Source of the DNA: a virus
Virus record (IMG/VR): IMGVR_UViG_3300005287_000001
Strand: one strand, 5' to 3'
Length of the DNA stretch: 28,969 bases
Both the position numbers and the translations under genes were made by a program. Each line of letters begins with the position of its first letter. Positions within the stretch are counted from its first letter, which is position 1. Below the pieces are notes generated by a model. It was not told where the DNA came from, ran no database searches, and was given only the letters and a program-made list of their open reading frames with translations. Below, piece after piece: positions 1 to 28,969 of the stretch.

Positions 1-110
1 ATGTTTCACTTCTATAGTAATGTCAAATACAATCTTACTGATGAACAGTTCAATAAGATTATGGAGGACAAAATGGATAGAGCAGAAATCTTAATTAGTG
101 GTTATAATAA
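1..110. repeat. Exact 110-bp terminal overlap with 28860..28969, a circular-contig signature; unique genome length is 28859 bp
   Basis: Compared by eye. The first 110 nt (atgtttcacttctatag...gttataataa) equal the last 110 nt. The overlap lies inside an uninterrupted ORF. Confidence 0.95.
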
Positions 111-795
111 AATGGATGAAAGAGAACGTAATGTTTATAGTACTACTCTCCATCTGGACAATGAATTGGTATCCATTACTAAGGAAGGAATGTTGGTAAA
201 CAATCTGAAAATACAAGCCTTTAAAAATAAACAGTTAATTCGTAAACAATATACAAATGATAATTTAATGCTGGCTGCTTATAGAGATGGTTCTGGTAGA
301 TTTACTCCTACTGATGAGTTGAGTAAGGATAGTATAGAACTATTTACTGGCCAAATTAAAAAGATAACAACATTCTCATATAAAAGTATGTTACAAGATT
401 ATCTGAATACTGCAGATAGATTACTGAGAAACGAATATGAAATGGAGTTTACAGAGTTTAGAGATATAAGATACTATATGAAGGAAAGTGAACTCAATAC
501 TCTAAAATGGAGTAAGGGTAAGATAGCCAAAGCTATTGCAGACAAAAAGATGTTGAATATAGTATTTCTCAATCTTTACAATCATTTTGGAGAAGGATTT
601 GTAAGCAGTGCAGATGTTAAAAAGTATTTGGAAGGAGAATTTGATAGATTACAAATTGATTTAACTGCAAAGGCAGCTCTTATTAAAAATAATGGAATCT
701 TTAATGTAGAGGAAACATCTAAAAGAATAGATGGCAAAGTAACTAAGGGATTTGAAATTGGAAGTAGAATATTAAATTTTAAAATATATGAATGA
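1..795 (+). CDS. SF2 DExH helicase-like protein, C-terminal part; same gene as 27855..28969 across the circular junction, about 599 aa in total
   Basis: Frame is continuous with 27855..28969 (28860 corresponds to position 1, in frame). TGA stop at 793-795. No in-frame TAG. Confidence 0.7.
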   Translation: MFHFYSNVKYNLTDEQFNKIMEDKMDRAEILISGYNKMDERERNVYSTTLHLDNELVSITKEGMLVNNLKIQAFKNKQLIRKQYTNDNLMLAAYRDGSGRFTPTDELSKDSIELFTGQIKKITTFSYKSMLQDYLNTADRLLRNEYEMEFTEFRDIRYYMKESELNTLKWSKGKIAKAIADKKMLNIVFLNLYNHFGEGFVSSADVKKYLEGEFDRLQIDLTAKAALIKNNGIFNVEETSKRIDGKVTKGFEIGSRILNFKIYE

Positions 796-1204
796 ATTTA
801 AGAAAGCCGAATAGCTCGGTAGGGAAAAGTTTTAGCAAGGTCTAAAGAAGAATGGCATAAAGAACTATAAATTTACAACTAACTAGTATGATCCAATAGA
901 CTGTATTATCTGGAATAAAGGTAAAAAGATACTAATTGAGATCAAGAACAGAGATGAGAAGTATGAGAATTATCCAACACATATGATGGAGCTTCACAAA
1001 TATAGAGATATGATGAAAATGCCAGCAGATAAAAGATATTATGTTTGCATATTCGGAAACACCTTTTACTGGTACAATCTAAATGATATTGATGTTTAGC
1101 CAGAATTAATGTATGGAGCTAAAACAACAGCCATAGATACTGGCAAAGTTCTTAAACAAGTACTATTTATACCAACTAATAAAGCAAAAATTACAAAACT
1201 ATGA
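788..1204 (+). CDS. PD-(D/E)xK nuclease-like protein, 138 aa, with 4 in-frame TAG codons
   Basis: The ATG at 788 overlaps the helicase stop. With TAG as sense the product is MNEFKKAE(Q)LGREKF(Q)QGLKKNGIKNYKFTTN(Q)YDPIDCIIWNKGKKILIEIKNRDEKYENYP...DV(Q)PELMYG...KITKL. D-x(n)-E-I-K is a restriction-endonuclease-like motif. The TGA at 1202-1204 overlaps the next ATG (ATGA). This ORF is absent from the standard-code track. Confidence 0.6.
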
Positions 1205-1809
1205 AAAGAATTATATTATTCCTTATTACAATTGTTACTCTTAATGTAAATGCACAAGAGTTAGTTCTAAATAAATTAATAGATGATACTACAAGATGTT
1301 GTTGTACCAATACAGAAAAAATATTTGGCGGTACTAAATACACATTAGCTAAAGATGCTTTTGAAAACGGACAAGAAATTTACAGTCTTTATTTTTTCGT
1401 ACATAAAGCCAGTATGATTAAATCTACATTTAAAGATCCTTTAGCTTACTCACCAATAATTAAATTGATTACTGAAGATGGTGATACTATTGAAGCATAT
1501 AGAACTTATGGTGATGTTGATTTAGGAGGTAAGACTTTTACAATGCCACATTATGATCATTATTATGGCCGAATAGGTAAGTTAAGATATAGTGGTAGTT
1601 TTCAGAATGGCTATGACTCATATAATTGGACAATTTATAAAGGAACATATTTATACCAGATAGAAGAAAATAAACTTCAAATACTTTTTACTAAGAAATT
1701 TAAAATAATGTATGAAAATCAATTTGGTATATGGAAAGAAATAAATTGCCATAATATAAAGAAGCATTTACAAAAATCTTATGAAATAATGAAGCCTATT
1801 AAATTTTAA
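1201..1809 (+). CDS. Secreted protein of unknown function with an N-terminal signal peptide
   Basis: 202-aa ORF. The N-terminus MKRIILFLITIVTLNVNAQ is a classic signal peptide. TAA stop and no TAG. Confidence 0.7.
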   Translation: MKRIILFLITIVTLNVNAQELVLNKLIDDTTRCCCTNTEKIFGGTKYTLAKDAFENGQEIYSLYFFVHKASMIKSTFKDPLAYSPIIKLITEDGDTIEAYRTYGDVDLGGKTFTMPHYDHYYGRIGKLRYSGSFQNGYDSYNWTIYKGTYLYQIEENKLQILFTKKFKIMYENQFGIWKEINCHNIKKHLQKSYEIMKPIKF

Positions 1810-1813
1810 TACT

Positions 1814-1948
1814 ATGATACTATTAATAATTATACTACTAACCTTCCTTGCTGTGGTATTAGTAAAGATGATTACTAAGATACATAAAGATTTTAAAAGA
1901 GATATGTACATCGCGAAAATAGATAGAAAGTACCGAAACCTACGATAA
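1814..1948 (+). CDS. Small single-pass membrane protein, 44 aa
   Basis: ATG at 1814. Product is MILLIIILLLTFLAVVLVKMITKIHKDFKRDMYIAKIDRKYRNLR, with a hydrophobic N-terminus and basic tail. TAA at 1946-1948, followed directly by a terminator. Not in the ORF track because it is too short. Confidence 0.45.
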   Translation: MILLIIILLTFLAVVLVKMITKIHKDFKRDMYIAKIDRKYRNLR

Positions 1949-1953
1949 ATAAA

Positions 1954-1983
1954 GGGCTGTCCAGAGATGGATGGCCTTTTTTT
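1954..1983 (+). terminator. Rho-independent terminator
   Basis: GGCTGTCCA (1955-1963), loop GAGA, TGGATGGCC (1968-1976). The stem is 9 bp including two G-U pairs, followed by T7 (1977-1983). Confidence 0.7.
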
Positions 1984-2050
1984 GTACCACTATGTTTGAT
2001 TATTTAGTGGATATTAACTTTACAAACTTGCTGGTGTGATAAAAATTTAT

Positions 2051-2058
2051 TACCTTTG
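2051..2058 (+). promoter_or_regulatory. Bacteroidota-type -7 promoter box TACCTTTG (consensus TAnnTTTG) upstream of the integrase
   Basis: Exact match to TAnnTTTG, ending 8 nt before the ATG at 2067. A TTG lies about 20 nt upstream (2028-2030) as a possible -33 element. Confidence 0.45.
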
Positions 2059-2066
2059 CACCCAGT

Positions 2067-3662
2067 ATGAAAGTATTAGGTTATATCAGAGTCTCCACAG
2101 ACAAACAAGATTTGGAGAGACAGAGAGATCTCATTAGGAGATATTGTATTGACAAAGAACTCATTGGTATCGAAGAGGATTTTGCCGTTAGTGGTGCTAA
2201 GCTAAGCCGAGTTGGATTGAATAATGTCCTTACAAATTACAGTAAGGTGAATGTAGTGGTAGTGAGCGAACTATCCAGAATCAGTAGGAATGAGGATGTG
2301 ATGGAAACATTTAATCTCCTTTATGAAATACTGAGCAAGTTTAATCTGGTTATGTTGGATGATCCTAGTAAAGTATATAAGAAGAATATGGGATTGACTG
2401 ACTTTCTTATGCTGGCTATAAAAGCTTATGGTGCAGCAGATGAAAGAAAGAAGATTACAGAACGTATGCTTACTGGTAAAGTATCCATCGTAACCAGATA
2501 CCCTTTAGCGTATGTAGGTGCACAAGTTCCGTTAGGATTTAAGGTGGTCAGTACTAAGTCTATACCTAAGAGTGTATTAGAAGTAGATGAGGAGAAGATA
2601 CAAATAGTAAAGAAGATATATCAATTAGTAGTAGAAGGATCTTCTTTAAGACAAGCTACTAAGAAGATTAATATGATGTATAATTTGAATATGTCAGTAC
2701 CTGCAGTAAGATTTGTACTTAAAAATCCTTTTTATAATGGAAGGAGACTTTATAAAGGTACATATTACGATACTGGAATAAAAGTAATAGATGATATTAC
2801 CTTTAATAAGATTGGTAAAGTACTACAACATAATAGAGAGGATAAGAGAAATGATGTAAAGTTTCTCAATCCATTAAAAGGCATTCTTAAATGTACTTGT
2901 GGACATAATTTAGGTGTTGTTTACTATGATGGTGAACCTTATTATGGATGTGCCAATCATACTAGTGTTAGATATAAGGCTGCTACAATACTAGATATGG
3001 TCTGGAGAGATGTAAAGTATAGAATAGATACTCAATTATTTCTAGATGATACAAATGCCAGTATAAAGAGATTGGAGGATGAAAACTCACAGATAGAAGT
3101 ATCGGCCAAAGAAATTGAGATGCAAATACTAAATAAGGATAAAGAAAGAGATTCTTTACTAAATAGTATGACTGATTTTACCAATGTGAATTTACTAAAA
3201 GTAATAGATCAGCAAGCCAATAATATAGATGCTGAAATATCTAAATTGAATAAAAGATTGGAAGAGATGAGAGACCAGCAAATGGACAATATACATAAAA
3301 TAGAAACAGAAAGAAAAGCTCTTGTTACTAAGATAGTAGAAACTCCAGAAGGTAAAAAATCTTTATACCAGAAGTTGCTAGATAAAGTCAATATATTCAG
3401 ATCAACTAAAAGATCTTCTGTCGTTAAGATACATTATAAGAATGGTACAATTAGTACCTTGTTCTATTTAGATAGCCATAGACCTATCATATACAGCCTA
3501 CCAAGCGGTTTTGAGTGGGATGCAGATACTTGTACCATCTCAACAAAATCTAGTCCCAGAAAGGCTGGATTGAATGAAGGTAGGTACAAACTGCCAGAAG
3601 TACGTCAGATCCCTTTAAAGGACATAAAAAAACTATTCGTTATTGAGGATTGGGAAATATAA
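2067..3662 (+). CDS. Large serine recombinase (phage integrase)
   Basis: 531 aa. The N-terminus MKVLGYIRVSTDKQDLERQ is a resolvase-type catalytic Ser motif. A Cys-rich zinc-ribbon-like segment (CTCGHNLGVVYYDGEPYYGCANH) and a coiled-coil segment follow. TAA stop and no TAG. Confidence 0.9.
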   Translation: MKVLGYIRVSTDKQDLERQRDLIRRYCIDKELIGIEEDFAVSGAKLSRVGLNNVLTNYSKVNVVVVSELSRISRNEDVMETFNLLYEILSKFNLVMLDDPSKVYKKNMGLTDFLMLAIKAYGAADERKKITERMLTGKVSIVTRYPLAYVGAQVPLGFKVVSTKSIPKSVLEVDEEKIQIVKKIYQLVVEGSSLRQATKKINMMYNLNMSVPAVRFVLKNPFYNGRRLYKGTYYDTGIKVIDDITFNKIGKVLQHNREDKRNDVKFLNPLKGILKCTCGHNLGVVYYDGEPYYGCANHTSVRYKAATILDMVWRDVKYRIDTQLFLDDTNASIKRLEDENSQIEVSAKEIEMQILNKDKERDSLLNSMTDFTNVNLLKVIDQQANNIDAEISKLNKRLEEMRDQQMDNIHKIETERKALVTKIVETPEGKKSLYQKLLDKVNIFRSTKRSSVVKIHYKNGTISTLFYLDSHRPIIYSLPSGFEWDADTCTISTKSSPRKAGLNEGRYKLPEVRQIPLKDIKKLFVIEDWEI

Positions 3663-3800
3663 CTCTAAGATGCTTCTAAAGAGTTGGAAGGTGGTTTTGA
3701 ATGGGATAATATATATGTAGAGGTTTTTAGAATTCGGTTTTGCCCAGTTGTGTTTAAGGCGGAGGCGGGTGGTTTCCAAAATTTCACTTTAAAAAAATTA

Positions 3801-3843
3801 CCCCCCTTCCCCTTCGACCGCACCCATACCCCTTCCCCTACCT
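3801..3843. other. C-rich tract, giving G-runs on the minus strand; a compositional outlier in an AT-rich genome
   Basis: ccccccttccccttcgaccgcacccataccccttcccctacc. On the minus strand there are five runs of at least 3 G. It lies between the convergent ends of the integrase and the 3893..4177 gene. Confidence 0.6.
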
Positions 3844-3892
3844 ACAATAATAAAGGTGAGCCACCATTATAGTAGCCCACCAGTGGTGCAGT

Positions 3893-4177
3893 CTAAGCTG
3901 TCTTCTGCCCTAGTAACTCTTGTATCTTCTCAGAGGGAAGTGTCTTTAAATATGCAGCTATTTCATCGCTATGTTGCAATGCCATCTTCATCTCTACTTC
4001 AGAACGTAGTTGTTGGAGATTAGCTACATAGGTAGGATATACCTCTAGAAGAGTATCTATCCTCTTTAATACCTTGCCTAGTTTGGCCTCATCAGTAGAG
4101 AACCAAGTACCAAACAATTTAACACATTCAGCTCTGTTGTTGCCGAGCACCACATTGATCAAAGTAAGATCTTCCAT
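3893..4177 (-). CDS. Hypothetical protein, 94 aa; the only ORF in the genome that appears to terminate at TAG
   Basis: ATG at 4177, with an upstream in-frame TAA at 4223-4225. The stop at 3893-3895 is TAG. The sequence after it does not look like protein. Confidence 0.5.
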   Translation of the reverse strand: MEDLTLINVVLGNNRAECVKLFGTWFSTDEAKLGKVLKRIDTLLEVYPTYVANLQQLRSEVEMKMALQHSDEIAAYLKTLPSEKIQELLGQKTA

Positions 4178-4335
4178 TATACATCTAATTATAAATTGGC
4201 TAAGAGGATTATGGAGCTGCCATTATTAAACCACAGTACCTACCTCTACTAACTCCTCGATACTGTATTAGTTGCCATTAATTTAAGATTTATAACATCA
4301 GTACTTCTGGATAGATCCACAGTGAGACTGCAATA

Positions 4336-4343
4336 CAAAGGTA
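4336..4343 (-). promoter_or_regulatory. Candidate -7 box TACCTTTG on the minus strand
   Basis: The reverse complement of caaaggta matches TAnnTTTG and is the same 8-mer as at 2051. It points toward the 3893..4177 gene. Confidence 0.35.
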
Positions 4344-4371
4344 TATAAAATATCTGATATATGATATATTT

Positions 4372-4390
4372 ATTAAGGTATATTAACAAA
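4372..4390. repeat. 19-bp direct repeat, copy A (attaaggtatattaacaaa)
   Basis: Identical to 4541..4559. It lies immediately downstream (minus sense) of a hairpin and about 29 nt upstream of a TAnnTTTG box. Confidence 0.8.
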
Positions 4391-4414
4391 GTGAGGCCAG
4401 CCGAAGCTGACCTC
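4384..4414 (-). terminator. Hairpin with a UUCG loop; putative terminator
   Basis: Minus strand reads GAGGTCAGC-TTCG-GCTGGCCTC. The stem is 9 bp with one mismatch, followed by CACTTTGTT, which is a weak U tract. Confidence 0.45.
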
Positions 4415-4499
4415 TAAATTACAAAAGTGTTGAATCAACGGGTAAAACCATCACAGGCATAACTTTATGTAAACCATAAATGATTCACCACAATTGAAT
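4385..4499 (-). ncRNA. Candidate small non-coding transcript bounded by a promoter-like box and a hairpin
   Basis: No ORF longer than 13 codons. An 11-bp stem with one mismatch forms between GTGGTGAATCA and TGATTCAACAC. An inner TTTATG/CATAAA hairpin is also present. Bounded by the -7-like box at 4506-4513 and the hairpin at 4393-4414. Confidence 0.2.
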
Positions 4500-4505
4500 T
4501 CGGCA

Positions 4506-4513
4506 CAAAGATA
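4506..4513 (-). promoter_or_regulatory. Candidate -7 box TATCTTTG on the minus strand
   Basis: The reverse complement of caaagata matches TAnnTTTG. It is preceded by repeat copy B at the same spacing as copy A to its box. Confidence 0.3.
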
Positions 4514-4540
4514 ATAATAATATTTGAACTGGCAATACTA

Positions 4541-4559
4541 ATTAAGGTATATTAACAAA
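4541..4559. repeat. 19-bp direct repeat, copy B
   Basis: Identical to 4372..4390. Confidence 0.8.
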
Positions 4560-4582
4560 AAAAGGCAGATCTTCACAGACCC
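4557..4582 (-). terminator. Weak hairpin plus T7 after the holin gene; putative end of the late operon
   Basis: Minus strand reads GGGTCT-GTGA-AGATCT, a 6-bp stem with two G-U pairs, then GCC and TTTTTTT. Confidence 0.35.
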
Positions 4583-4649
4583 ACCCTCTAGATAAATTTT
4601 ACTGAAATTGCTGCAAAGGTAGTCAGAATAATCTGAACTGCCAAAGCAT

Positions 4650-4907
4650 TTAAGAATCTTTACTATTAATTTTCTTATCTATGTATTCTTTAGTCTTAGA
4701 TTCAAACTCACCTAAGTTAGTTCTAAAGTAAATACTAATGCCATAAATACCACCACTGTAGACTAAAGCCTAAGCGACATAAAGCAATACTCCAGTAGTA
4801 ATATTGAAACTGTTAAGGAAGAAACATAAGAAGGTAAGTACAACACCAGTAAGTATCATAAATATAGCTGATCCATACTATAACCATTCTTTTGTATTCT
4901 GTGTCAT
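4650..4907 (-). CDS. Holin-like membrane protein, 85 aa, with 2 in-frame TAG codons
   Basis: The ATG overlaps the endolysin TGA (ATGA). Product is MTQNTKEWL(Q)YGSAIFMILTGVVLTFLCFFLNSFNITTGVLLYVA(Q)ALVYSGGIYGISIYF...KDS. It has two hydrophobic helices and a charged C-terminus. TAA at 4650-4652. Absent from the standard-code track. Confidence 0.65.
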
Positions 4908-5320
4908 AAATGTAGTATTTGATTTTTATGTTTACTATTTGGTAGGGATATATGTATCCAGCTATAATTACGTTCATTGATTAGCTGCCCTACCACAATC
5001 TAACCATCTTTAATCATCTATTGTGCTAATTCAAACAAACGTCTATTATCTGCCAATCCTATATTAATATCTGCAGCCTCCCCATAGAGGTGCTAACTAG
5101 TCTTACTACCATTAACAGCCTTATTTAATTCTGGACATCTATAGCCAGATGTTATCTTTATTGGTTTCTTAAATTTATCTCTTAAAGGCTATAAAATCTC
5201 CCTAGCCAATCTAGAGATATTATTCTTTACAGATTGGCTGGGAGCATTATCAATATGTAGCCTATAAGCAGTAGAAGAAGCTACAAATTCTTCTAGTGTA
5301 AAATTATTTGTTATTTCCAT
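4904..5320 (-). CDS. Endolysin, zinc peptidase M15 family (Peptidase_M15_3-like), 138 aa, with 4 in-frame TAG codons
   Basis: ATG at 5318-5320. The motif is ...KITSGYRCPELNKAVNGSKTS(Q)HLYGEAADINI...YSWIHISL, giving the H..D..H metal-ligand pattern typical of this family. TGA at 4904-4906. Absent from the standard-code track. Confidence 0.85.
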
Positions 5321-5423
5321 TTTAACTAAAGCTTTACGACCACTTACTGTTGTGCATCGGATAGTGCTGTTATAAGAATAGATATATCTGAACAGTTATC
5401 AAACACCACACTACTAACCTTTG

Positions 5424-5714
5424 TTATTGCCAGCAGTTTATCCTACTTATCAGATAAAACACTACACTTATAACATTATTAGTAGAAATATCAATATTAT
5501 TGTCAGCAGTATACTCAATACCACCACCCGATCCAGTATAGGATATAACACCGTCAGTGATATTAATACTATTACCAGCAGTATAAGTAGTGTCCTTAGC
5601 TGAAATTGTACCATCTTTAATTGTTATATTGTCCCCAGCAGATTCTGCAGATATGACATTATTTAGTATGTCTGCTGTATACTTAGTATCTGTTGCTGAT
5701 AATCTGAGGAAATA
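5424..5714 (-). pseudogene. Fibre-repeat fragment with no start codon; possible remnant or unconventional cassette
   Basis: An open frame of about 97 codons follows TAA-TAT-TAA. It encodes ...AGDNITIKDGTISAKDTTYTAGNSINITDGVISYTGSGGGIEYTADNNIDISTNNVIS..., paralogous to TLTAGDNITITDNVISATGGGTEYTAG in 18744..20831. It has no ATG, GTG or TTG start. Confidence 0.35.
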
Positions 5715-5720
5715 TTAATA

Positions 5721-5846
5721 TTATTCCCTACTTTGTATAATGGTATTAGAAGAATCATTACCTTCTGTACCATCATAGTCTGTTACCTAGTAAGATCCAA
5801 TTTCACTGAAATCTAATCTAGATAATGCTATTGCTATTCCACTCAT
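5721..5846 (-). CDS. Small hypothetical ORF, 41 aa, with 1 TAG
   Basis: The ATG at 5844-5846 lies 6 nt after the tail-fibre TAA. It ends at TAA 5721-5723, in the same frame as the fibre-like fragment that follows. Confidence 0.25.
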
Positions 5847-5851
5847 ATTAA

Positions 5852-8800
5852 TTAACTATAATGTAGAGATTTATAATAACTATACAGATATGGATATGTA
5901 TCAACATTAAGCTTATTGCCATCTATATCACACAAATAATATTTAGAACCCTCTTTATAGAAATAGTATTCATAAGTAACACCCTTCTTTCCAGAAGTAT
6001 ATTGCCACATTTGAACAGCATAAATTGTCTTAGATGATGATCCTATTGATTCACTATACTCCAATACAGCATAATGTCTATACCAACCACTCAACGATGT
6101 TAGAGAATTCAAATCAGATGATGTGATATTATTAGCTGTCTTAGACGATTTGGCTGTGTATGCTCGACCATTATAAGTTGATGGATTAGAGTTACCACTG
6201 ATTCGGTATGTCTTAACAGAACTAACCTACTTATAACCTTCGTTGAATTTATAGTAGGTAGATGTGCTACCTATCTTAGATCCATAAATATCAGCACTAC
6301 TAATCTGATTGCTGGATAGTGAAACATCAGATATTGGATAAAGTGTTGTTATTTCTGACCAGCTATTATCCTTAGCTTCAACATAATAGGTAATTCCGTT
6401 TGGCCCTAAATCATATAAGACTTCACCATTCTATATAAACTGTAGGATAGCATTACCAGAACTATCCACACCAATCTGTATATTAACAGAACCATCAGTA
6501 CCTGCAACTTGCATCAATCCATTCTATAGAGTGATTGTAGCAGAACCAGTAGTAGTTAGTTTGTTAGCCTCAACAATATTGGTATTCAATTTACCTTCGC
6601 TGTTTAATAAGGCTGTCTGTGTACCACTATTATTCTATACAACAACCGTATCTGCTGTAAGTGTTATCTTTCGATTCTCTATATCTATACCAGTTTCTAG
6701 AGTTAGTTTCCTATTCAATATAACCTCTGGCGGAACCATAAATCCAGTAAGTACTCCAAAGTCTGCAACATACCATCTTCCTACTACACCAGTAATACCG
6801 TATGCCCAATTTAGTGTACAAATGCTATCATAAGCAGAAGTAAACGTTACAAAATAAAGATACCAACCATAACCTAGAGAAATCTTATCTGATGAATTGG
6901 TAAGTCTGTTGTAAGAACCAGAATCATCTGAACTATAGCAACCAGCAGTTAAGGTTGTAGATCTACTATTATAAGGCTTAGCAATAACATAGTATGTTAT
7001 AATAGATCCATTATAATCATCATATATATATGGTGCAACAGTTGTGCCCTATGCATAGGCTGCTGTCTCACTAGTTGCTGTATAATATAGATTACGATAG
7101 TGCCAACCAGTTTCTGTATCCTTAGCCTTTGTATTAGTTACTCCAGAATCCTAATGACTGAACCAATCACCAGTAGCAAACGGCTGTACAATAAGATTGT
7201 TAGTTTCTAATGAATAATCACCTTGTGCGAATCCCCAGTCAGTTGCAATCTGACCTTCCTCCAACTGTAACCAGTGAATCATATAACCACTACTATTCGT
7301 AATTGATAAGGTCACATAACCAGTTGTTGAGGCTGTATATGTGCTACCATTACTAAGTGAAGTACCATTCAGTTTAGTTGTAATAGTTCCTGCAGCAGAG
7401 TAAGTATAAATATACGTTGTACCACTCTCTATATAGACTTGTCTGGTAATAGATTTAATACTACCACCAATCAGAGATTGTGGGATTATATTATTAAACT
7501 CAGTGAGCTTACCAATCTTAGCTGAAATCTTATCAGCTGTCTGTGTTATAGTAGATACACTATTTTCCAGAGTTGTCTGTTTATTAGTAAGTGTATTAAT
7601 TGATGTTGTATGACTGCTAACAGTAGAGGACAAACTATTTGCTGTAGCTTGTACACTAGCAATATTAGTTTTATTGGTTTCAATATTAGTTTTATTAGTT
7701 GCAATATTAGATGTATTAGTTGCAACATCATCCTCCAGATTATCAACATCACTATTTAAACTGCTAATGGAAGAAGTATGGCTAGCAAGTGTTGCCTAAA
7801 TACTAGTATCAGTCTATTGTAATTTAGATATGTTAGTTTCATTGCTAGTAACTCTTCCATCTAAGTTAGATATGGAAGTAGATTGACTGCTTACTGTTGA
7901 GGACAAACCATCAACTGTTGCTTCCAAAGATGTCTGTTTATTGGAGATGTTAGTAATTTCTTCTGTATTACTGCTAACATTACCTTCCAGATTGTCTATA
8001 TCATTTTCACAAGCAGATATTCTATTCTCTAATTCAGTAGTATCAATTCCACCTATGTCTATAGACAATTCACCATTAGCTGTCCATTTGATTTTACCAC
8101 CAGCTAATTGGCCAGAACCATCTTTATTAAATTCCCACATACTATTAAGGTTACGCATTGCACCAGTTAAGTATGCATTCTCAGCATATAATCCTTGTCC
8201 TTCCAGAGTTGTACCATTCCATACAATACCCTCCAAATTACCGATTCTCACATTAGTTGGAACTGTTCCACCAGTAGAATCTACATCAGCAAGTACACTC
8301 TCACTGTTAAGTTGTTTCATAAAGTCTATGTAAGCACCATCATAAGGATTCAATTTAATAATGGTCTATCTGTTCTCATCAGATTTATTACCAATCCTTA
8401 TTAAATACTTATTCACAGCACTATCTGGATCAACTGTAGTCCAAGTGGTTTCACCTCTATCATTAGTAGAAGATCCACCAGTAAAGCCAGTATTTGGAGT
8501 TACTCTAACTGTATTGTCACCATCTTTATTAACTGAGACCACCAATCCTTTAAATGACCATATCTAAGTCTCAGAAGCCTTATACTGTAATTGTACATAA
8601 TCATTAGCTACAAATGGAGGATATTCATTAATAGTAAATATCCACTCATCACCATCTTTTGTAACCTTCTCTATCTATCCAGTATCTGTTACTAACAAGA
8701 TACCATTAGTTGCTCTCATCTCATTATATGTAATCACATAAACATCTAGGTTGCCATTTACTTTAACATTACTGAACTCTGCAGTACCATCATTTTGTAT

Positions 8801-15810: not shown

Positions 15811-15825
15811 ACTGCTTATAAATTA

Positions 15826-15857
15826 AAAAAAAGGAGGAATCTACAAAGACCCCTCCA
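15826..15857 (-). terminator. Rho-independent terminator after the major tail protein gene
   Basis: Minus strand reads GGAGGGGTCT-TTGT-AGATTCCTCC, a 10-bp stem with two G-U pairs, followed by T8. Confidence 0.75.
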
Positions 15858-15874
15858 TAACTATTAATTATCTA

Positions 15875-16339: not shown

Positions 16340-16345
16340 AATAAA

Positions 16346-17489: not shown

Positions 17490-17514
17490 ATCATACACTT
17501 TGACGTTAAACGTT

Positions 17515-18741: not shown

Positions 18742-18743
18742 AA

Positions 18744-20831: not shown

Positions 20832-20839
20832 ATCACTAT

Positions 20840-20888
20840 AAAAATAAAAAAAGTGCAAGCAGGTAACTCTAAGTACCTACCTGCACTT
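20840..20888 (-). terminator. Hairpin plus T-rich run after the major capsid gene
   Basis: A 13-bp stem with 2 mismatches forms between 20853-20865 and 20874-20886. On the minus strand it is followed by TTTTTTATTTTT. Confidence 0.5.
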
Positions 20889-20912
20889 TAAAGGTTATTA
20901 ATTAATCAAAAA

Positions 20913-22130: not shown

Positions 22131-22138
22131 ACTTTATT

Positions 22139-22729
22139 TTATTTAACTAATAAATTCTTTCGTAAATTAGAGTAATATTCAGCAAGTTTTATCTTGCGTA
22201 ATTCTTTATTCTCAGCTTCTTTTATTAAATCTAGGCCTCTAGTATCTACAACAACACTAGTAGCGTCATAAGCAGCTCTATAAACTGGTGAAACATCAAA
22301 CAATTCATTAATATGTGTTATGATTCGTAAGTAAGAACCATCATCTTGTTTCTCCCATTTGTCCTCTGCAACAGTAAATGCAAAACTAGATGTAGATATA
22401 TCACCCCTTTTAACACCTTCTAGTAATTCATCACCTAATGCAGTATGTGGTGCTTCAAACTTATACATAAGTCCTATATCGTCTATACTTAAAGATAGAC
22501 TACCAACACCTTGTTTAGATCTTGCAAGAACACCCCTTTCTTCATTATGGTCTAATAAGGCCAGTACATCCGATTGATCTATAACACCTTCTAGAGCTGC
22601 TGGATCTATAATCTCAATAAATCCACCTAAATCATTAGATGGAGTATTAAATACAGCAGCATAACCACTAATCATACGGCTATCTACTGTATCCAATCCA
22701 ACATCACCAATATTTCTTTTTTCTATCAT
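22139..22729 (-). CDS. Prohead serine protease, HK97 family
   Basis: 196 aa with ...SGYAAVFNTPSNDLGGFIEIIDPAALEGV...LLDHNEERGVLARSK.... TAA stop and no TAG. Confidence 0.9.
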   Translation of the reverse strand: MIEKRNIGDVGLDTVDSRMISGYAAVFNTPSNDLGGFIEIIDPAALEGVIDQSDVLALLDHNEERGVLARSKQGVGSLSLSIDDIGLMYKFEAPHTALGDELLEGVKRGDISTSSFAFTVAEDKWEKQDDGSYLRIITHINELFDVSPVYRAAYDATSVVVDTRGLDLIKEAENKELRKIKLAEYYSNLRKNLLVK

Positions 22730-23988
22730 ACCTCTGTATTCGTTACATCCTCTTGTTTAACAATCTCCTCATTCTCTATTCTGTTATCTGTAGCTACATT
22801 ATTACTTGCATTTTTTAAAGTCATAAGATTTACTTGGCAGAAATGATTATCACCACCATCAACGGCTGGCAAATCAAATTCTTTTCTTATCTCATTAACT
22901 GATACAACACCAATATTGAATAAAGTATTGTAATAGTTAGCAAGTGACTCTTTATCTGTTCTAAGTAATCTGGATGTATCAAATCTTACCTAAATAGAAT
23001 CTCTCTCCGATGGCTTATACAATTTCCTTTCAAACTCTAACTCTATCTTTTCAAGCATAGGAGAAAGTGTATCCGTTAAGAATGATAAGTTTGTAGCTTC
23101 AACAGTACTATAGGAGCTATGAGATAAATCAAAGGCTTTTACTGGAGAAACTCCGAAAAATCTACATATATCTACCACATTGAACTCTCTAGTTTCTAAT
23201 AACTGAGAATCCTCTGGATTAACAGTAATTGGTTCATAGGTCATATTACCCTGCAGAACGGCAATACCATTAGGATTGCCAGTTTCTGGGCTGAATGCCT
23301 AATTCCAACTGTTTTTTAAATCTTGCTATTGTTTGGTTGTAAGACTAGATTCAACTTTAAGAATACCAGCTAAGTTAGCTCCACCTTTAAAGAATCCTGC
23401 TGAATGTGCTTCAGCATTATTAGCCAACTCCAAAGTATTCCTTGCATATTTTAAAGTGGATATACCAGTAATGCCATCATTACTAAAGTTAAGAATATGT
23501 ATCATATTGCAAGCCTCTACAATACCTTTAATACCTTTTACTGAGTAAGTAATATTTTCCTCATAGGTGCGAGGTTCAATAATAGTCACATATTCAGAAG
23601 GAATAAAGTGTAAAGCAATAGCATCACCAGCTAAATTCCTTTGTATGTAAGCATATCCATTTCCTTTTAAGAGTACACTAGTTACCAGTGTTTTCAAGAA
23701 TGTAAATCTAGTCATTCTCTTGTTTGGTTCTGAATTTAGAATCCTATAAGTAGGGTGTTGAACGAATTTACTTCTATATCCCTAAGCATCCACTTTGTAA
23801 GGTTCTAGTGGAAGCTGGGCTATAGAATCAGAAATTACTTCTACACACCTATATACTGCTGATAGTAATAAGGCCTTATTAGGTGTAGCCGTAAGAATAT
23901 TACTACCAAACAGTAAGTAGTCAAAACCAGAACTTCTTTGTTCCATTTGAACTGGAACTACTTTCTACTTTTTACTAAATAATCCCAT
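22726..23988 (-). CDS. Portal protein, HK97 family, 420 aa, with 5 in-frame TAG codons
   Basis: The ATG at 23986-23988 overlaps the TerL TAA (TAATG). One frame joins 23326..23715 and 22990..23244. TAG codons are at 23965, 23782, 23326, 23299 and 22990. The TGA at 22726-22728 overlaps the protease ATG. Confidence 0.9.
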
Positions 23989-25607
23989 TATATAACTAAT
24001 ATTTCATTTGTATAGTGTGGAGAATCTAAATACTATCCTAATGCTTCTATTATGGCTATTACACCATCTATCTTTTTACCCTTAACTGCTTTGTTAGGTT
24101 TAATGTTACCGTTATGATCTGATTTTAGTTGTACATTCTTAAAACACCATCTGGTAATCTCATTATTAAAGATAACAGCTTTGCCAGATAGTAGTAAACG
24201 TTCCAATTCTCTGGTTGGTTTATTAAAGTTACCTAGAGTCTGTGGATACTCAACTAAAGGTAATCCCATCTCTGTAGATTTAATAGCCCACTATGTGGCA
24301 TTGTACTTATCATAACCAACCGATTGTAAGTTCACTACATCAGCATATTTCATCATATCATTAGTAATATAGTCATAATCAGTAACATTACCAGCCGTAA
24401 TATGTAATATACCCTAATTCTTCCAACTCTTATATAATTCTCGGTCTGGTTTCTCTATTAAAGCAGATTCTGGTAGATAGTAATCTGTCCAGAAATAGTA
24501 AGTATCATCTTTAATAGCCATATAAGCAACAGCAGTCAAATCTGATGTGGCAGCCAAATCCACACCACAATATACATCACAATCTCTAAATGTATGCCAA
24601 TCAAAATCAGATGAAGCCTTAACAATATAGTGATCTGGTAGCCATACATCTGCTACGTCACACCACAAGTTTAAATTCTTAGTCTTAACTGATACTTCCT
24701 CTGATGGATTGTTTGTTGCTTGTTGTACCTATTCTCTAAGATATTTTTTAGTAACAGTAACATCTAAATTAGGAGTACATTTTACCCAATTCTCTTCTTT
24801 AGTCCAATCATCATCAACATCTAAAGAGTAAATAGCAACAAATAAAGAATCATCCTGCTTTAAGTTATGTAGAATTTCCACACAAGTTTCTCTTAATTTA
24901 TAGCAGGGCAAAGTCTTATCAAATCCAGCAGTTGTAATAGTACACAAGTGAGGATTTTGTCGCATACCCATAGATGATTTTATTACATCCCTAACCTTAG
25001 ATGTTTTAGCTGAGTGATATTCATCGACCAAACCAAAGGAAGCATTAAATCCATCCAGTTTAGAATCATCAGATGCAAATACTTTTAAAGAAGAGTGATT
25101 AGCATCTAAAAAGATCCTATCCCTATATGCTCTAAGATACTTAGATTTTGGATCTAGTTGCTTAGTAAAAGTCTGACAAAACTCATAAGCAATCTTAGCT
25201 TGCTCCTTACTATTAGCAGCCAAATCAACCTCAGCACCATCCTCACCGTCAGCTATTAAAAAGTAAAGACATAAGCCAGCAGCTAGTGCTGTCTTGCCAT
25301 TCTTTCTGGAGACTTCTATATAACTGCTGGTAAACCGTCTAGTACCGTCAGTTGTATAGAAGCCTACAATATTAGCTATAATAAATTGTTGCCAGTTCTC
25401 TAAGATGAATGACTAGCCAGAAGAACTACCCTTAAAGTGTTTCAGCATTTTAAAGAAGTTAATTGCTTTATCTACTTTATCCTCTCTAAAGGTAAGATCT
25501 GTTCTTTGTAAATCATTCTGGAACCTCTAGCAAGCCAAATATATCAGTTCACCAACCAAGATTCTTTTATTAAGGACATCATCAACATACTGATAATATC
25601 CTTTCAT
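23988..25607 (-). CDS. Terminase large subunit, 539 aa, with 6 in-frame TAG codons
   Basis: The ATG at 25605-25607 overlaps the TerS TGA. One frame joins 24729..25223, 24414..24668 and 24033..24269. TAG codons are at 25527, 25413, 24729, 24414, 24291 and 24033. The motif is ...FILENWQQFIIANIVGFYT...YIEVSRKNGKTALAAGL... (Walker A). TAA at 23988-23990. Confidence 0.9.
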
Positions 25608-25978
25608 TTATTGTCTTTTAAAAAACTGTCTAATGGTGAATCTTCCTCATCATTATCTAATGCATCTATTTTCTATCTATCCTTTGGTGTTAGTCCAAAC
25701 TTCTCCATTACTTTAATGCAAGCAGTTTGTGCATCCTTGCCAATTTTAACTGCAGGATGCTCACTAATATTACCCCTATCACTTCTAACTGTTATGCCTT
25801 CTTTTTCTATAAGCTTATTGGCCTTTATAAAAGTAGAGTAGTTTCTAGCCAGTATCTGTAATGCTCCCGTATCAACGTCAGCTAATATTCCCTTTGATTC
25901 TAGCATATCAATGACTACTTTCATATAAGCCTTAGCCTCTGCTTCAATACTTTTAGGCATTATAAATTCACCCGTCAT
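25604..25978 (-). CDS. Terminase small subunit (P27-family-like), 124 aa, with 1 in-frame TAG
   Basis: The 25673..25978 fragment continues through the TAG at 25673 to TGA 25604-25606 (ATGA overlap with TerL). Confidence 0.75.
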
Positions 25979-26081
25979 TTTTGTAAGATAATTAATAATT
26001 TATTCATAAGTCATACATCTCAGTGTTAAACATTAAATATTTAAGGCTAGAAGTACATCTTAGTAGTTTTTTTAATTTTCA

Positions 26082-26113
26082 TTTGGAAAATGTAAAATTA
26101 CTAGGTATATTTA
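26082..26113 (+). promoter_or_regulatory. Candidate early promoter with -33 TTTG and -7 TATATTTA
   Basis: TTTG at 26082-26085 and TAtaTTTa at 26106-26113, a 7/8 match to TAnnTTTG, with 20-nt spacing. It lies about 28 nt upstream of the ATG at 26141. Confidence 0.25.
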
Positions 26114-26140
26114 CTTATAATAATAATAAATCAAAATACT

Positions 26141-26299
26141 ATGAAAACAAAAAAATCTGGATTTGTTGGTGTAAGATTAACACCTCATTAGGAGTTTGAA
26201 CTATCAAATATTGCTAGAGAACTCAATTTAAGTAAGAGTTAGGTAATCAGATGTAGTATTGATAACCTAATAGAATCATATTATAGCCCTATAGTGTAA
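26141..26299 (+). CDS. Small ribbon-helix-helix-like DNA-binding protein, 52 aa, with 2 in-frame TAG codons
   Basis: Product is MKTKKSGFVGVRLTPH(Q)EFELSNIARELNLSKS(Q)VIRCSIDNLIESYYSPIV. This is a beta-strand then helix-helix pattern of CopG/MobC type. TAA is at 26297-26299. The last 15 nt overlap the tRNA. Confidence 0.5.
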
Positions 26300-26359
26300 A
26301 GGTTAGCACCAATATCTCTAAAATATTAGGTCTCAGTTCGATTCTGAGTGGGGCAACCA
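26285..26359 (+). tRNA. Amber suppressor tRNA, anticodon CUA, reading UAG
   Basis: Hand-folded cloverleaf.
- Acceptor stem: 26285-26291 with 26349-26355, six pairs including one G-U; position 1:72 is A-A.
- T at position 8.
- D stem: GTGT/GCAC, with GG in the D loop.
- Anticodon stem: AATAT/ATATT. The loop is CT-CTA-AA, with the anticodon at 26318-26320.
- Variable region: 4 nt.
- T stem: CTCAG/CTGAG, with loop TTCGATT.
- Discriminator A, and an encoded CCA. Confidence 0.85.
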
Positions 26360-26370
26360 AAAGAAATACT

Positions 26371-26532
26371 ATGAACAGAACAGAAACTTTTATAGAAATG
26401 TGTGAGGCAACAATAAATATGGCAAAATTAGTAAAGAAATTTGCCGTTGATTATGGCCTGCAAGATAATCCAATTTATATAGATTACCAAGATCAACTTA
26501 ATAACCTAAGTGTAGTTTATGAAGAAAATTAA
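26371..26532 (+). CDS. Hypothetical protein, 53 aa
   Basis: The ATG at 26371 lies 12 nt after the tRNA. Product is MNRTETFIEMCEATINMAKLVKKFAVDYGLQDNPIYIDYQDQLNNLSVVYEEN. TAA stop and no TAG. Confidence 0.4.
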   Translation: MNRTETFIEMCEATINMAKLVKKFAVDYGLQDNPIYIDYQDQLNNLSVVYEEN

Positions 26533-26998
26533 AAACTGGGATAGTTATAGACGTAAATAGTGTAATATAGAAAAAGCCGTTTACAACCCAGAAGTAAATA
26601 ATCTAATACAGAAAAATTATATACCATTATACCAATCTTTAGTAAAGAATGAATGGGATTTGACCTATTTTTAGGATGCTTTCCTAAAGATAACACATTA
26701 GTACAATCCAGAAGAGGATTTTGTGTAGCAGTTTATACATCTTTTCAAGATAATGAAAGGTGGTTGTATCAGAGATGATAATGCATTACTAAAGATAAAT
26801 CAAGAAGATATGTCAGTTTATTCTGGATATAATGATGTATATGTAAAGTAGAATGGTAATGAAGTACTATTGCCATTTAGTTTTGAACAAGAAGATACAG
26901 TAGTAGCTAAAACTAATAATAAACTAAAGGATGCCTTACTTAAAGAAAGCAGAGAAGCCAAAAATAAGAAGCGACATAAAACGCAAAACTAGGAATAA
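26519..26998 (+). CDS. Hypothetical protein, 159 aa, with 6 in-frame TAG codons
   Basis: The ATG at 26519 overlaps the previous gene's end. TAG codons are at 26558, 26672, 26699, 26726, 26849 and 26990. TAA is at 26996-26998. The 3' end overlaps the HNH start by 68 nt, so the true end or the HNH start is uncertain. Confidence 0.45.
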
Positions 26999-27314
26999 GA
27001 TCTACACCACCGCTAAATGGTCTAATTTGCGTAAAAGTAAACTAATGTTCAATCCTTTATGTGAATTATGTCTGGCACAGGGTAAAGTAACTCCAGCTAC
27101 TGATGTTCACCACAATTATTCCTTCCTAAACATAGATGGTAGTATAAACTATGATAGATGCTATGACTATGGAAATCTAATTAGTTTATGTCACTAGTGC
27201 CATTCAAAAATTCATAAATAGTATGGCCGAACAGAAGGAGAGGTAGGAAATCTAATATATGCCTTAAATAGAGAAAAAGAAAAAATTATTTCAGAATCAG
27301 AAGGACAAAAATAA
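26931..27314 (+). CDS. HNH endonuclease (packaging-associated type), 127 aa, with 2 in-frame TAG codons
   Basis: The track ORF 26931..27197 ends ...NLISLCH at a TAG. Read-through gives LCH(Q)CHSKIHK(Q)YGRTEG..., which completes the HNH C..C / H motif. TAA at 27312-27314. Confidence 0.85.
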
Positions 27315-27500
27315 CCGTCAGAAGTAATTTTTGATAGATTTGGAAGAGTGTGCAAAAATTGGGTAAAATTTGCACTTGGATTCTGGCAGGAAATGATTAT
27401 ATTTGTTTTAGAAAGTTAAGGAAATGGTGTTCAGATATTTTAATTCCAAAAACTAAATTCTATTCATAATTTTAAAATTTTATACAAGTTAGTTATTAAA

Positions 27501-27530
27501 AAGGGAGTTTAGACAGCTCCCTTCTTTAAA
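27501..27530 (+). terminator. Hairpin AAGGGAG/CTCCCTT followed by CTTTAAAA
   Basis: A 7-bp stem (27501-27507 with 27517-27523) and a 9-nt loop. It precedes repeat box 1 by 14 nt. Confidence 0.35.
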
Positions 27531-27537
27531 ACACCTA

Positions 27538-27570
27538 GTGTAACCATTTTACGAACCTTCCTCCTATAAG
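27538..27570 (+). repeat. 33-nt conserved box, copy 1 (gtgtaaccattttacgaaccttcctcctataag)
   Basis: 29/33 identical to 27736..27768. ACCATTTTAC is complementary to GTAAAATGGT at 27577-27586. Confidence 0.75.
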
Positions 27571-27693
27571 AAAGAGTAAAATGGTACCACCACTAAAAAT
27601 GGATATAAAATTTAAAATTGATGGTCAGAGAGAATTTTTAGAAGAATAAACTCACATTTTCCTACTATTATATTTTTCAGTACAACTGATTTC

Positions 27694-27728
27694 AAAGAAA
27701 GTTCCTTTATGGGGCTTTCTTTTTAAAA
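27694..27728 (+). terminator. Hairpin AAAGAAAG/CTTTCTTT followed by TTAAAAG
   Basis: An 8-bp stem (27694-27701 with 27715-27722) and a 13-nt loop. It precedes repeat box 2 by 13 nt. Confidence 0.35.
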
Positions 27729-27735
27729 GAAGTGG

Positions 27736-27768
27736 GTGTAACCATTTTACGTACCTTCCCCTTATAGG
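27736..27768 (+). repeat. 33-nt conserved box, copy 2 (gtgtaaccattttacgtaccttccccttatagg)
   Basis: 29/33 identical to copy 1. It lies about 87 nt upstream of the helicase ATG. Confidence 0.75.
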
Positions 27769-27854
27769 TAAGGGATTTCAGTTACAACACCAGTTTTGAA
27801 GATTAGATATAAATAAAGTTCAAATTTTTAACTAACCCATAAAAAATAAACAAT

Positions 27855-28969
27855 ATGAAAGAATTTATTATTGAAGGTGGAAATCACCGTTATTTAAGTG
27901 AATTAAAAGAATTTCAAGATGGTCTACCAGTTGGTGTAATAAATAAGACTAAACCAGATGTTGGCGGTACTTACACAGCAGCCAATTGTGATAGTAATTA
28001 CATTATTGTATGTCCCTTTAGGGATCTAGTTGATAGTATATGTGCTGATACAAATAATAAATATCCAGTGCTGAAGGTTTATCAAGGAGTAAAAGAATCT
28101 GACTTTACTAAGTATATGCAAAGTACTACGGTACATAAAATTGCTGTTACTTATGATAGTTTTAGTAGTAAAGTAATAAAGTGGATTAGTAAGTATGACA
28201 ATACCAATAACTGGAAAGTTCTAATTGATGAGTACCACTTAATTTTGGAGGATATGGATTATAGAGAGGATGCCATAGTAAATCTAATAGAGAGTGTACA
28301 CAGTTTCAAACATTACTCTTATTTGTCAGCAACTCCAATTAATGTGGATCTGGAAATAGATGAGTTTAAGAAATTGCCACATTATACAGTAACTTGGAAT
28401 AATGTAAGGAATATTTCGGTACAGAGAATTAATTGTTCTCAACTTACTAGAAGCGTCTTAGCCGTTCTTAATTCATTCATAGATGGAACACTAAGTATTG
28501 GTGGTATTAAGGTTGAAGAATTATTTGTATTTTGTAACTCGGTAACCTTTATTAAAAGACTGCTGGAGACTTTGGAAGTAGAACCAGAGGATGTAAAAAT
28601 CTGCTGTGCTTACAATAAAAGGAATGTACAAGTTCTTAACCGTTATCAAATAGAACCAATAACCAATCCTAATAAAAGATTGAACTTCTTTACTAAGAAA
28701 GGATTTCAAGGATGTAACCTATTTAGTAATAATGGACTAGTAATGGTTATTAGTGATGGCAACAAAGAAAGTACTTTAGTAGATATATGTACAACTATGG
28801 AACAGATTGCTGGTCGTTTGAGAGAGAATGAGAAATACCACAATATTTTTGGTAATGTAATGTTTCACTTCTATAGTAATGTCAAATACAATCTTACTGA
28901 TGAACAGTTCAATAAGATTATGGAGGACAAAATGGATAGAGCAGAAATCTTAATTAGTGGTTATAATAA
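27855..28969 (+). CDS. SF2 DExH helicase-like protein, N-terminal part; continues at position 111 of the window through the circular junction
   Basis: ATG at 27855. I read every codon to 28969 and found no stop. Motifs are KPDVGGTYTAAN (degenerate P-loop), VLIDEYH (motif II, DExH) and YLSATP (motif III). It is missing from the supplied track because it has no stop inside the linear window. Confidence 0.75.
   Translation, partial: MKEFIIEGGNHRYLSELKEFQDGLPVGVINKTKPDVGGTYTAANCDSNYIIVCPFRDLVDSICADTNNKYPVLKVYQGVKESDFTKYMQSTTVHKIAVTYDSFSSKVIKWISKYDNTNNWKVLIDEYHLILEDMDYREDAIVNLIESVHSFKHYSYLSATPINVDLEIDEFKKLPHYTVTWNNVRNISVQRINCSQLTRSVLAVLNSFIDGTLSIGGIKVEELFVFCNSVTFIKRLLETLEVEPEDVKICCAYNKRNVQVLNRYQIEPITNPNKRLNFFTKKGFQGCNLFSNNGLVMVISDGNKESTLVDICTTMEQIAGRLRENEKYHNIFGNVMFHFYSNVKYNLTDEQFNKIMEDKMDRAEILISGYN

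Follow-up and report, generated by a model that had tools for sequence, protein, structure and literature searches.

TAG as a sense codon in a small, circularly closed phage genome of the Bacteroidales prophage lineage that encodes its own suppressor tRNA

Background

Bacteriophages in which the amber codon TAG has been recoded are known since 2014. The subject of this report is such a case, the virus record IMGVR_UViG_3300005287_000001 of IMG/VR, a stretch of 28,969 nucleotides (nt) that was analysed over its full length and is referred to below as the window; it encodes a suppressor tRNA with the anticodon CUA and carries TAG inside many of its genes. Eight clades of recoded phages were described by Borges et al. 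(bioRxiv 10.1101/2021.08.26.457843), and these clades mix genetic codes 11, 15 and 4. One of them, 'Garnet', groups temperate phages and prophages with recoded TAG from Prevotella/Bacteroidetes hosts, with genomes of 34 ± 5 kb, among them a curated 24.4 kb prophage in Prevotella, and shows TAG-free integrases, a single recoded block of structural and lysis genes, and suppressor tRNAs (bioRxiv 10.1101/2021.08.26.457843). The window resembles Garnet in its small genome, low GC content, TAG-free integrase, one recoded structural and lysis block and suppressor tRNA, and also in its Bacteroidales relatives and in belonging to a lineage with mixed codes 11, 15 and 4. It differs in carrying a large serine recombinase, whereas the integrases of its recoded relatives L058 and L059 are of the tyrosine type, and in having TAG in some genes of the tRNA's own operon. 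All of these features fit the Garnet account, a likeness drawn from the published description of the clade, and the placement of the window among known code-15 gut phages, as proposed in an initial annotation made from the sequence, agrees with the published descriptions.

Three further systems are comparable in part. In Escherichia coli, supE is a chromosomal mutant allele of tRNA-Gln with the anticodon CUA that works with partial efficiency. The tRNA of the window would likewise put glutamine (Gln, Q) at UAG in competition with release factor 1 (RF1); however, no genome depends on supE, whereas here 17 genes, including those for terminase, portal, tape measure and lysin, rely on suppression. 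The window shares with crAss-like phages (Crassvirales) the sense reading of TAG in late genes, Bacteroidales hosts, and a CUA tRNA of one sequence family; that of phage cr125_1 shows 74% identity across 69 nt and likewise has an unpaired 1:72 position and A73. Those phages, unlike the window, are ~100 kb, virulent and podovirus-like with unrelated gene content, and in code-15 members the reading of TAG as Gln was proven by peptides (PMC9523058), while here it is deduced from DNA. Finally, theta-ribozyme-associated suppressor tRNAs of gut phages are likewise amber suppressors of recoded phages with Bacteroidota hosts (PMC10879173). CCA is encoded by only 4.5% of theta-associated tRNAs (PMC10879173), whereas the tRNA of the window includes it; moreover, no HDV-like or theta ribozyme was seen on its 3' side, and an open reading frame (ORF) lies 11 nt downstream.

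Results

In-frame TAG codons and coding density

With TAG taken as sense, the refined gene list comprised 27 genes and 8,823 codons. TAG occurred in frame 67 times across 17 genes (6,364 codons, about 1 per 95), figures identical to those of the initial annotation, and neither TAA nor TGA was found in frame in any of the 27 genes, which extends to the whole list what had been claimed for the recoded genes. Off-frame, TAA and TGA together accounted for ~8.7% of codons, so a frame of 1,239 codons free of both is not a product of chance. Gene ends were TAA or TGA in 26 of the 27 genes, with ATGA or TAATG overlaps at 11 junctions; the earlier description of gene ends thus holds apart from a single orphan gene (3893-4177, minus strand), which possibly ends in TAG.

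Genes were re-called by a uniform greedy ORF cover under codes 11, 15 and 4. Coding density reached 0.914 under code 15 (median ORF 190 amino acids, aa), compared with 0.739 under code 4, in which TGA is sense (median 101 aa), and 0.708 under code 11; density and ORF length were restored by code 15 but by neither of the other two. Standard-code gene calling fragments the genome into 40 ORFs (median length 105 aa), most visibly on the minus strand between ~4.6 and 26 kb, where reading TAG as sense turns short ORFs into a tightly packed array. Alignments to homologues continued through the TAG sites with the frame kept, and Pfam profiles spanned the sites from end to end (Phage_portal, positions 1-319 of 321; TerL_nuclease, 3-282 of 286). 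The base 3' of TAG was a purine at 69% of sites and at 70% over all codons, and by this measure TAG has no special readthrough context. The TAG counts previously given for TerL, portal, tape measure and the 1239-aa protein were reproduced, and the recoded genes of the packaging, portal, neck, tail and lysis functions are as follows.

4650..4907, minus strand: holin candidate, 85 aa, 2 TAG (phrog_8278, function unknown; two hydrophobic stretches)
4904..5320, minus strand: peptidase M15 endolysin, 138 aa, 4 TAG (Pfam PF08291)
5852..9571, minus strand: putative tail fibre, 1239 aa, 11 TAG (weak coiled-coil matches only; no profile confirms the function)
9568..12252, minus strand: distal tail protein candidate, 894 aa, 1 TAG (named by position; no PHROG match)
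12252..15176, minus strand: tape measure, 974 aa, 10 TAG (PHROG tape-measure families)
15176..17498, minus strand: tail and neck module (PHROGs), including g15176 with 2 TAG and g15514 with 0 TAG
16726-17175, minus strand: Neck1, 1 TAG (PHROG)
17172-17498, minus strand: head closure protein Hc1, 3 TAG (PHROG)
22726-23988, minus strand: portal, 420 aa, 5 TAG (Pfam)
23988-25607, minus strand: large terminase TerL, 539 aa, 6 TAG (Pfam)
up to 25978 (module 22726..25978), minus strand: small terminase, 1 TAG (Pfam)

TAG is therefore a sense codon in this phage genome, since frames are kept, homologues align through the sites, code 15 restores coding density and a CUA tRNA is encoded. The reassignment claimed at the outset is real, although its description as genome-wide was an overstatement: 10 of the 27 genes are without TAG, and not at random.

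The phage-encoded suppressor tRNA

A scan of the window with ARAGORN detected a single tRNA, a feature absent from the initial annotation, at 26285-26359 on the plus strand with the anticodon CUA. It scored 53.9 bits against Rfam RF00005 (gathering score 29). Its fold is a canonical cloverleaf, in which the anticodon stem measures 5 bp and the D loop 8 nt; CCA is encoded, A1 and A72 are mismatched, and the discriminator base is A73. The tRNA is located in the divergent region between the minus-strand small terminase (25978) and the head of a plus-strand operon, where the following features are found.

26141..26299, plus strand: small gene, 52 aa, 2 TAG, read as ribbon-helix-helix (RHH)-like, without Pfam or PHROG match
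26285..26359, plus strand: amber suppressor tRNA, anticodon CUA (ARAGORN; Rfam RF00005)
26371..26532, plus strand: conserved gene g26371, 53 aa, 0 TAG, directly 3' of the tRNA and in the same order in relatives L001 and L030
26519..26998, plus strand: conserved gene g26510, 159 aa, 6 TAG, the highest TAG density of the genome
26931..27314, plus strand: HNH endonuclease, 2 TAG (Pfam PF01844)
788..1204, plus strand: NERD-like nuclease candidate, 138 aa, 4 TAG (Pfam match under the curated cutoff)

The small RHH-like gene is the first of the operon, overlaps the 5' end of the tRNA by 15 nt and is kept in more than 20 relatives; in the standard-code relative L016 a Q stands at its first TAG position. 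The next ORF begins 11 nt past the tRNA. CUA tRNAs were present in the corresponding region of relatives L001, L027, L030 and L051, and the closest GenBank matches were also CUA tRNAs, from crAss-like phage cr125_1 (annotated as tRNA-Gln) and Dulem virus 42. When seven phage CUA tRNAs were aligned, 12 of 20 pairs covaried and a Watson-Crick 1:72 pair was seen in none of the seven. This tRNA is the likely decoder of TAG; CUA suppressors are frequent, though not universal, among code-15 phages. In E. coli, an unpaired 1:72 position together with a CUA anticodon is a classic determinant of glutaminyl-tRNA synthetase (GlnRS), A73 is an identity element of lysyl-tRNA synthetase (LysRS) and not of GlnRS, and CUA-anticodon tRNAs tend to be charged by one of these two enzymes, both of which read U35. 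The unpaired 1:72 position thus favours GlnRS but A73 speaks for LysRS, and the tRNA taken by itself leans towards Gln without deciding the matter.

A search for ribozymes resembling that of HDV (hepatitis delta virus), a minimal form of which marks theta-processed tRNAs within ~5 nt of the 3' end, in 26000-26700 at E ≤ 10 gave no match, although Rfam 15 may lack a theta-specific model, and no HDV-like or theta ribozyme adjoining the tRNA was found in six relatives. A sigma-70 promoter scan near the tRNA gave nothing above shuffled controls, the promoter type being the wrong one for Bacteroidota. No tRNA-CUA was found within ~10 kb on either side of the terminase in many heavily TAG-recoded relatives (among L033-L054, L057-L059, L002 and L019), in which the suppressor may be located elsewhere in the genome, be undetectable or be absent. 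The close TAG-recoded relative L026 has a different CUA tRNA (5948-6036, minus strand), which is 89 nt in length and shows the long variable arm typical of type II tRNAs (Ser, Leu, Tyr); the 17 TAG columns of L026 still decode best as Gln.

Proposed mode of action

The window very probably represents a temperate HK97-like siphovirus, complete in its genome, which infects a Bacteroidales host and reads TAG by means of its own suppressor tRNA. The host would use the standard code, and the phage would bring the tRNA as part of its plus-strand operon, at whose head the tRNA stands and in which the presumed replication gene and the integrase are also found. Once transcribed, the tRNA would be charged by a host synthetase, most probably GlnRS, and would compete with host RF1 for UAG, decoding it as an amino acid. 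Suppression would enable the 17 genes and their 67 TAGs, which comprise genes for packaging, portal, neck, tail and lysis along with a few on the plus strand. The suppressor would not be required for the serine recombinase, the presumed replication protein of 599 aa, the lipoprotein-like gene or the virion proteins of greatest abundance. Since the latter genes are free of TAG, the codon may serve as a translational gate, possibly a throttle, on the lytic programme; a gate between lysis and lysogeny is also how Borges et al. read the avoidance of TAG in integrases (bioRxiv 10.1101/2021.08.26.457843).

Several observations weigh against this account, including the decoding of the window's own TAGs and the base A73, which is a LysRS rather than a GlnRS element by the E. 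coli rules. Neither a release factor nor an aminoacyl-tRNA synthetase nor a recognisable RF1 inhibitor was seen among the genes of the window, and the efficient reading of 10-11 TAGs in a single gene against RF1 calls for a mechanism that the account does not supply. Moreover, the tRNA's own operon includes genes with TAG (RHH-like, g26510, HNH and NERD-like), so early genes in the standard code are not cleanly separated from late genes that are recoded.

Uneven distribution of TAG among genes

TAG made up 22% of all TAG, CAA and CAG codons in the whole genome. Against this background, the integrase, replication gene, lipoprotein-like gene and g26371 together contained 0 TAG in 1,385 codons and 42 CAA/CAG (Fisher P = 2.5e-5), and the capsid, protease, major tail protein, tail terminator and g15514 contained 0 TAG in 980 codons (P = 1.2e-3). 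The serine recombinase contributed 16 CAA/CAG codons to the first group. The coordinates of the TAG-free genes other than g26371 and g15514 are given below.

27855..28969 continuing through 1-795, plus strand: presumed replication gene, 599 aa, 0 TAG (by position, and by a faint DEAD-like protein of relatives found there)
1201..1809, plus strand: signal-peptide or lipoprotein-like gene, 202 aa, 0 TAG (N-terminus only; without Pfam or PHROG match)
2067..3662, plus strand: large serine recombinase (integrase), 531 aa, 0 TAG (Pfam Resolvase, Recombinase and Zn_ribbon_recom)
15875-16339, minus strand: major tail protein, 0 TAG (PHROG)
16346-16729, minus strand: tail terminator, 0 TAG (PHROG)
20913-22130, minus strand: major capsid protein, 0 TAG (Pfam)
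22139-22729, minus strand: S78 prohead protease, 0 TAG (Pfam)

Pfam and PHROG searches with the 599-aa product of the window gave no match. A similar order was seen when TAG was expressed as a share of Gln positions in recoded relatives: the recombinase had a share of 0 and the replication gene 0 to 0.07, followed by the major tail protein (0.12) and the capsid (0.17), and then the portal (0.38), head closure (0.49) and terminase (0.50). Across the 23 recoded relatives, capsid, protease and major tail protein showed the lowest shares among late genes (0.12-0.24), while terminase, portal, tape measure and head closure ranged from 0.33 to 0.57; this trend is only suggestive because the relatives are not phylogenetically independent. 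The pattern suggests that the recoded codon is selected against where expression is high, and the depletion in the virion proteins of highest copy number suggests that suppression is costly or incomplete.

A bolder interpretation of the same pattern is that TAG is not a clean 21st sense codon but a graded, leaky signal, with the TAG load of a gene setting the dosage of its protein, since suppression in competition with RF1 would be incomplete. The absence of TAG from lysogeny and replication genes and from the most abundant virion proteins, together with its frequency in the low-copy terminase, portal, tape measure, fibre and lysis proteins, is what can be cited for this idea, which we regard as possible though unlikely. 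Two genes of the minus strand are of particular relevance here.

18744..20858, minus strand: gp6-like head-tail connector fused to an extension, 4 TAG (profile matches)
3893..4177, minus strand: orphan gene, 94 aa, ends in TAG (ORF only)

The first ~100 aa of the connector gene are gp6-like and are followed in frame by an extension of ~590 aa with a YadA-head repeat; the first TAG lies just past the connector domain, and the connector of the relatives is ~100 aa only. A leaky TAG could thus yield two isoforms, a short connector and a fibre-bearing protein of 704 aa. In the same manner it could yield two forms of the 94-aa orphan protein, one of them extended by 96 aa. Readthrough of the orphan (to 3605) adds 96 poor-looking residues that overlap the 3' end of the integrase, and the orphan may genuinely terminate at TAG even though the phage reads that codon as sense. 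The source database entry for this protein ends at the TAG, consistent with a standard-code gene call, and a homologue search in a set of 5.8 billion proteins returned only the window's own protein.

The amino acid inserted at TAG

To each codon type we assigned scores from the residues of relatives aligned to it, using raw DNA translations only. By this procedure all 61 of the 61 sense codons were recovered correctly, and TGA in the TGA-recoded relatives, which served as a positive control, decoded as tryptophan (W) in 28 columns, with W in 13 of 14 conserved columns. When the TAGs of the window and its relatives were pooled (246 columns), Q scored highest (118.9), followed by glutamate (E, 84.0) and lysine (Lys, K, 77.7). 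This order is the pattern of true Gln codons, and the aligned codons were chiefly CAG and CAA. Among the 30 TAG columns conserved at ≥80%, 18 were Q and four K. Taken singly, with 9-66 columns each, all 23 recoded relatives had Q as the top call.

The window on its own gave a different order. Its 38 TAG columns scored K 16.4, Q 13.4 and E 11.7, making it the only one of 24 genomes without Q at the top, and the difference of K minus Q was +3.0, compared with a bootstrap value of -8.8 ± 3.8 for true Gln codons (P about 0.002) and +22 ± 3 for true Lys codons. Several TAGs private to the window fall on columns dominated by K, namely portal 221 (K in 36 of 47), g26510 position 64 (K in 15 of 21) and Hc1 position 96 (K 19). 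From the window alone, Lys and Gln are not separable. Its tRNA could accordingly be supposed to insert Lys, or a mixture of Gln and Lys, and A73 and the tendency of CUA tRNAs to be charged by either GlnRS or LysRS are in keeping with that.

We consider this doubtful, and less likely than a leaky TAG. The value of +3.0 is far from that of true Lys codons, and the K excess depends on three to four private columns. By contrast, the TAGs that the window has in common with its relatives lie on near-invariant Q columns (TerL 293, TerL 439, g26510 position 17 and RHH-like position 17), with Q in 31 of 32 sequences at TerL 293, in 30 of 31 at TerL 439, and K at neither. All 23 relatives decode Q, their detected CUA tRNAs are of the same family with the exception of that of L026, and the unpaired 1:72 position with the CUA anticodon is a GlnRS determinant. 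The comparison of codon columns thus indicates that TAG probably stands for Gln, with some recent K-to-Q changes on the long branch leading to the window.

Two further comparisons were made. The 120 best terminase protein matches (75% identity over the full length) have Q at four of the six TAG positions, and they were dropped as evidence because the DNA of the relatives has TAG where the database gives Q, so that the argument from such code-15 gene calls is circular. The public protein collection holds the terminases of this lineage under code 15, with TAG written as Q, and alignment to database proteins translated in this manner is unusable for inferring the residue at TAG. A PDB search with the M15 lysin, which has a TAG within its S-x-H motif, gave one distant match (1lbu) with R at that place and was uninformative.

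Relatives, their genetic codes and the host

The terminase relatives at 55-80% identity were prophages in Bacteroidales genomes, with Parabacteroides, Bacteroides, Phocaeicola, Prevotella, Sodaliphilus, Muribaculaceae and Paludibacter among their hosts, as well as IMG/VR contigs of 20-33 kb. Their codes were determined by translating raw DNA and counting stops inside tblastn alignments to the proteins of the window, which covered 48 loci. Of these, 23 were TAG-recoded, five TGA-recoded and 20 standard. In a rough neighbour-joining tree of the terminase, built without support values, the window fell in a clade that is TAG-recoded throughout, and the sister clade mixed TAG, TGA and standard codes. 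The TGA-recoded relatives (L003, L004, L008, L009 and L018) were prophages in Bacteroidales genomes with 4-15 in-frame TGA codons per locus. A candidate 'tRNA-SeC' with the anticodon TCA, a possible opal suppressor, was called by ARAGORN in L018 (9493-9586) and was not confirmed by Rfam.

The initial annotation had called the density of recoding striking. This view did not survive comparison, for recoded relatives have 1.79 TAG per 100 aa in TerL, 1.83 in the tape measure and 0.82 in the capsid, against 1.11, 1.03 and 0 in the window, which is therefore less densely recoded than they are. A small integrase-bearing recoded genome is likewise no novelty, as such Bacteroidetes phages and prophages had already been described (Borges et al., bioRxiv 10.1101/2021.08.26.457843).

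The prophage L059, on a contig of 224 kb, allows phage and host genes to be compared directly. It is heavily TAG-recoded, with 29 TAGs in the tape measure and 11 in the terminase, and its tyrosine integrase and replication gene contain none. The host genes that flank it have no in-frame TAG except one, which lies at codon 27 of a gene whose start call is over-extended. We know of no Bacteroidales in which TAG is sense. It is accordingly highly improbable that the host bacterium itself reads TAG as sense and is simply matched by its phage, as phages of code-25 bacteria match theirs (Borges et al., bioRxiv 10.1101/2021.08.26.457843). In such host-matching phages ~90% of genes use the recoded codon (bioRxiv 10.1101/2021.08.26.457843), whereas 10 of the 27 genes of the window avoid it non-randomly and the phage supplies a suppressor tRNA of its own.

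Damage or error, be it decay of a prophage or an artefact of sequencing or assembly, is a negligible explanation of the in-frame breaks: these are TAG only, frames are kept and domains complete, the same codon recurs, partly at the same positions, in dozens of independent contigs and prophages, a matching CUA tRNA is encoded, and the contig closes on itself. Pyrrolysine can be dismissed with equal firmness, as nothing but the default ARAGORN label 'tRNA-Pyl' for a CUA anticodon speaks for it, tRNA-Pyl has an atypical shape whereas this tRNA is a canonical cloverleaf fitting the general tRNA model, Pfam and PHROG scans showed no PylS or PylBCD-like domain in any product of the window, and the TAG columns align with Gln.

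Genome closure and gene content

Positions 1-110 of the window are identical to 28860-28969 as a direct repeat, leaving a unique genome of 28,859 bp with a GC content of 33.7%. The repeat falls within a single ORF (27855..795) that stays open through the junction, and the two facts together mark the contig as a wrap-around assembly of a complete, circularly closed genome. A megablast search of positions 1-25000 against GenBank phages gave no match, and the top tblastn matches of the terminase were two unannotated human faecal contigs at ~70% identity. Pfam and PHROG profiles recognised small and large terminases, portal, S78 protease, HK97-type capsid, gp6-like connector, head closure, Neck1, tail terminator, major tail protein, tape measure, M15 lysin, HNH endonuclease and large serine recombinase. 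The structural and lysis genes form a tightly packed minus-strand block at 4650-25978. The remaining features are listed here.

1..110 (= 28860-28969): terminal direct repeat, assembly wrap-around
17515..18741, minus strand: DUF285 / BspA-type leucine-rich-repeat protein, 408 aa, 3 TAG (Pfam)

In the relatives checked, nothing equivalent to the leucine-rich-repeat gene occupies this place, apart from a partial and weak match in L007. Positions 4177-4650, which separate the orphan ORF from the holin candidate, form a stretch of ~470 nt without a convincing gene, which contains a 32-nt direct repeat (4366-4397 and 4535-4566, 84% identical). Given its proximity to the serine recombinase, this gap may be a regulatory or attachment-site region.

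Conclusions

The recoding in this genome is real, and the phage adds to a kind already described; more precisely, it adds a complete, circularly closed member with a serine recombinase to the small recoded temperate phages of Bacteroidales. Three points are of moderate interest, namely the ambiguity between Gln and Lys in the window, the task that a lone tRNA has in facing RF1 at 67 sites, and the prospect that TAG load controls protein dosage or yields readthrough isoforms.

Mixed codes within one lineage have been reported before (Borges et al., bioRxiv 10.1101/2021.08.26.457843). With standard, TAG-to-Gln and TGA-to-Trp members within ~60-75% terminase identity, the relatives of this phage provide a natural series for studying the origin of code changes. 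A small genome with a lone tRNA, and with neither release factor nor synthetase, suits the study of how RF1 is overcome, and the same system is suited to asking whether the decision for lysis or lysogeny is gated by recoding.

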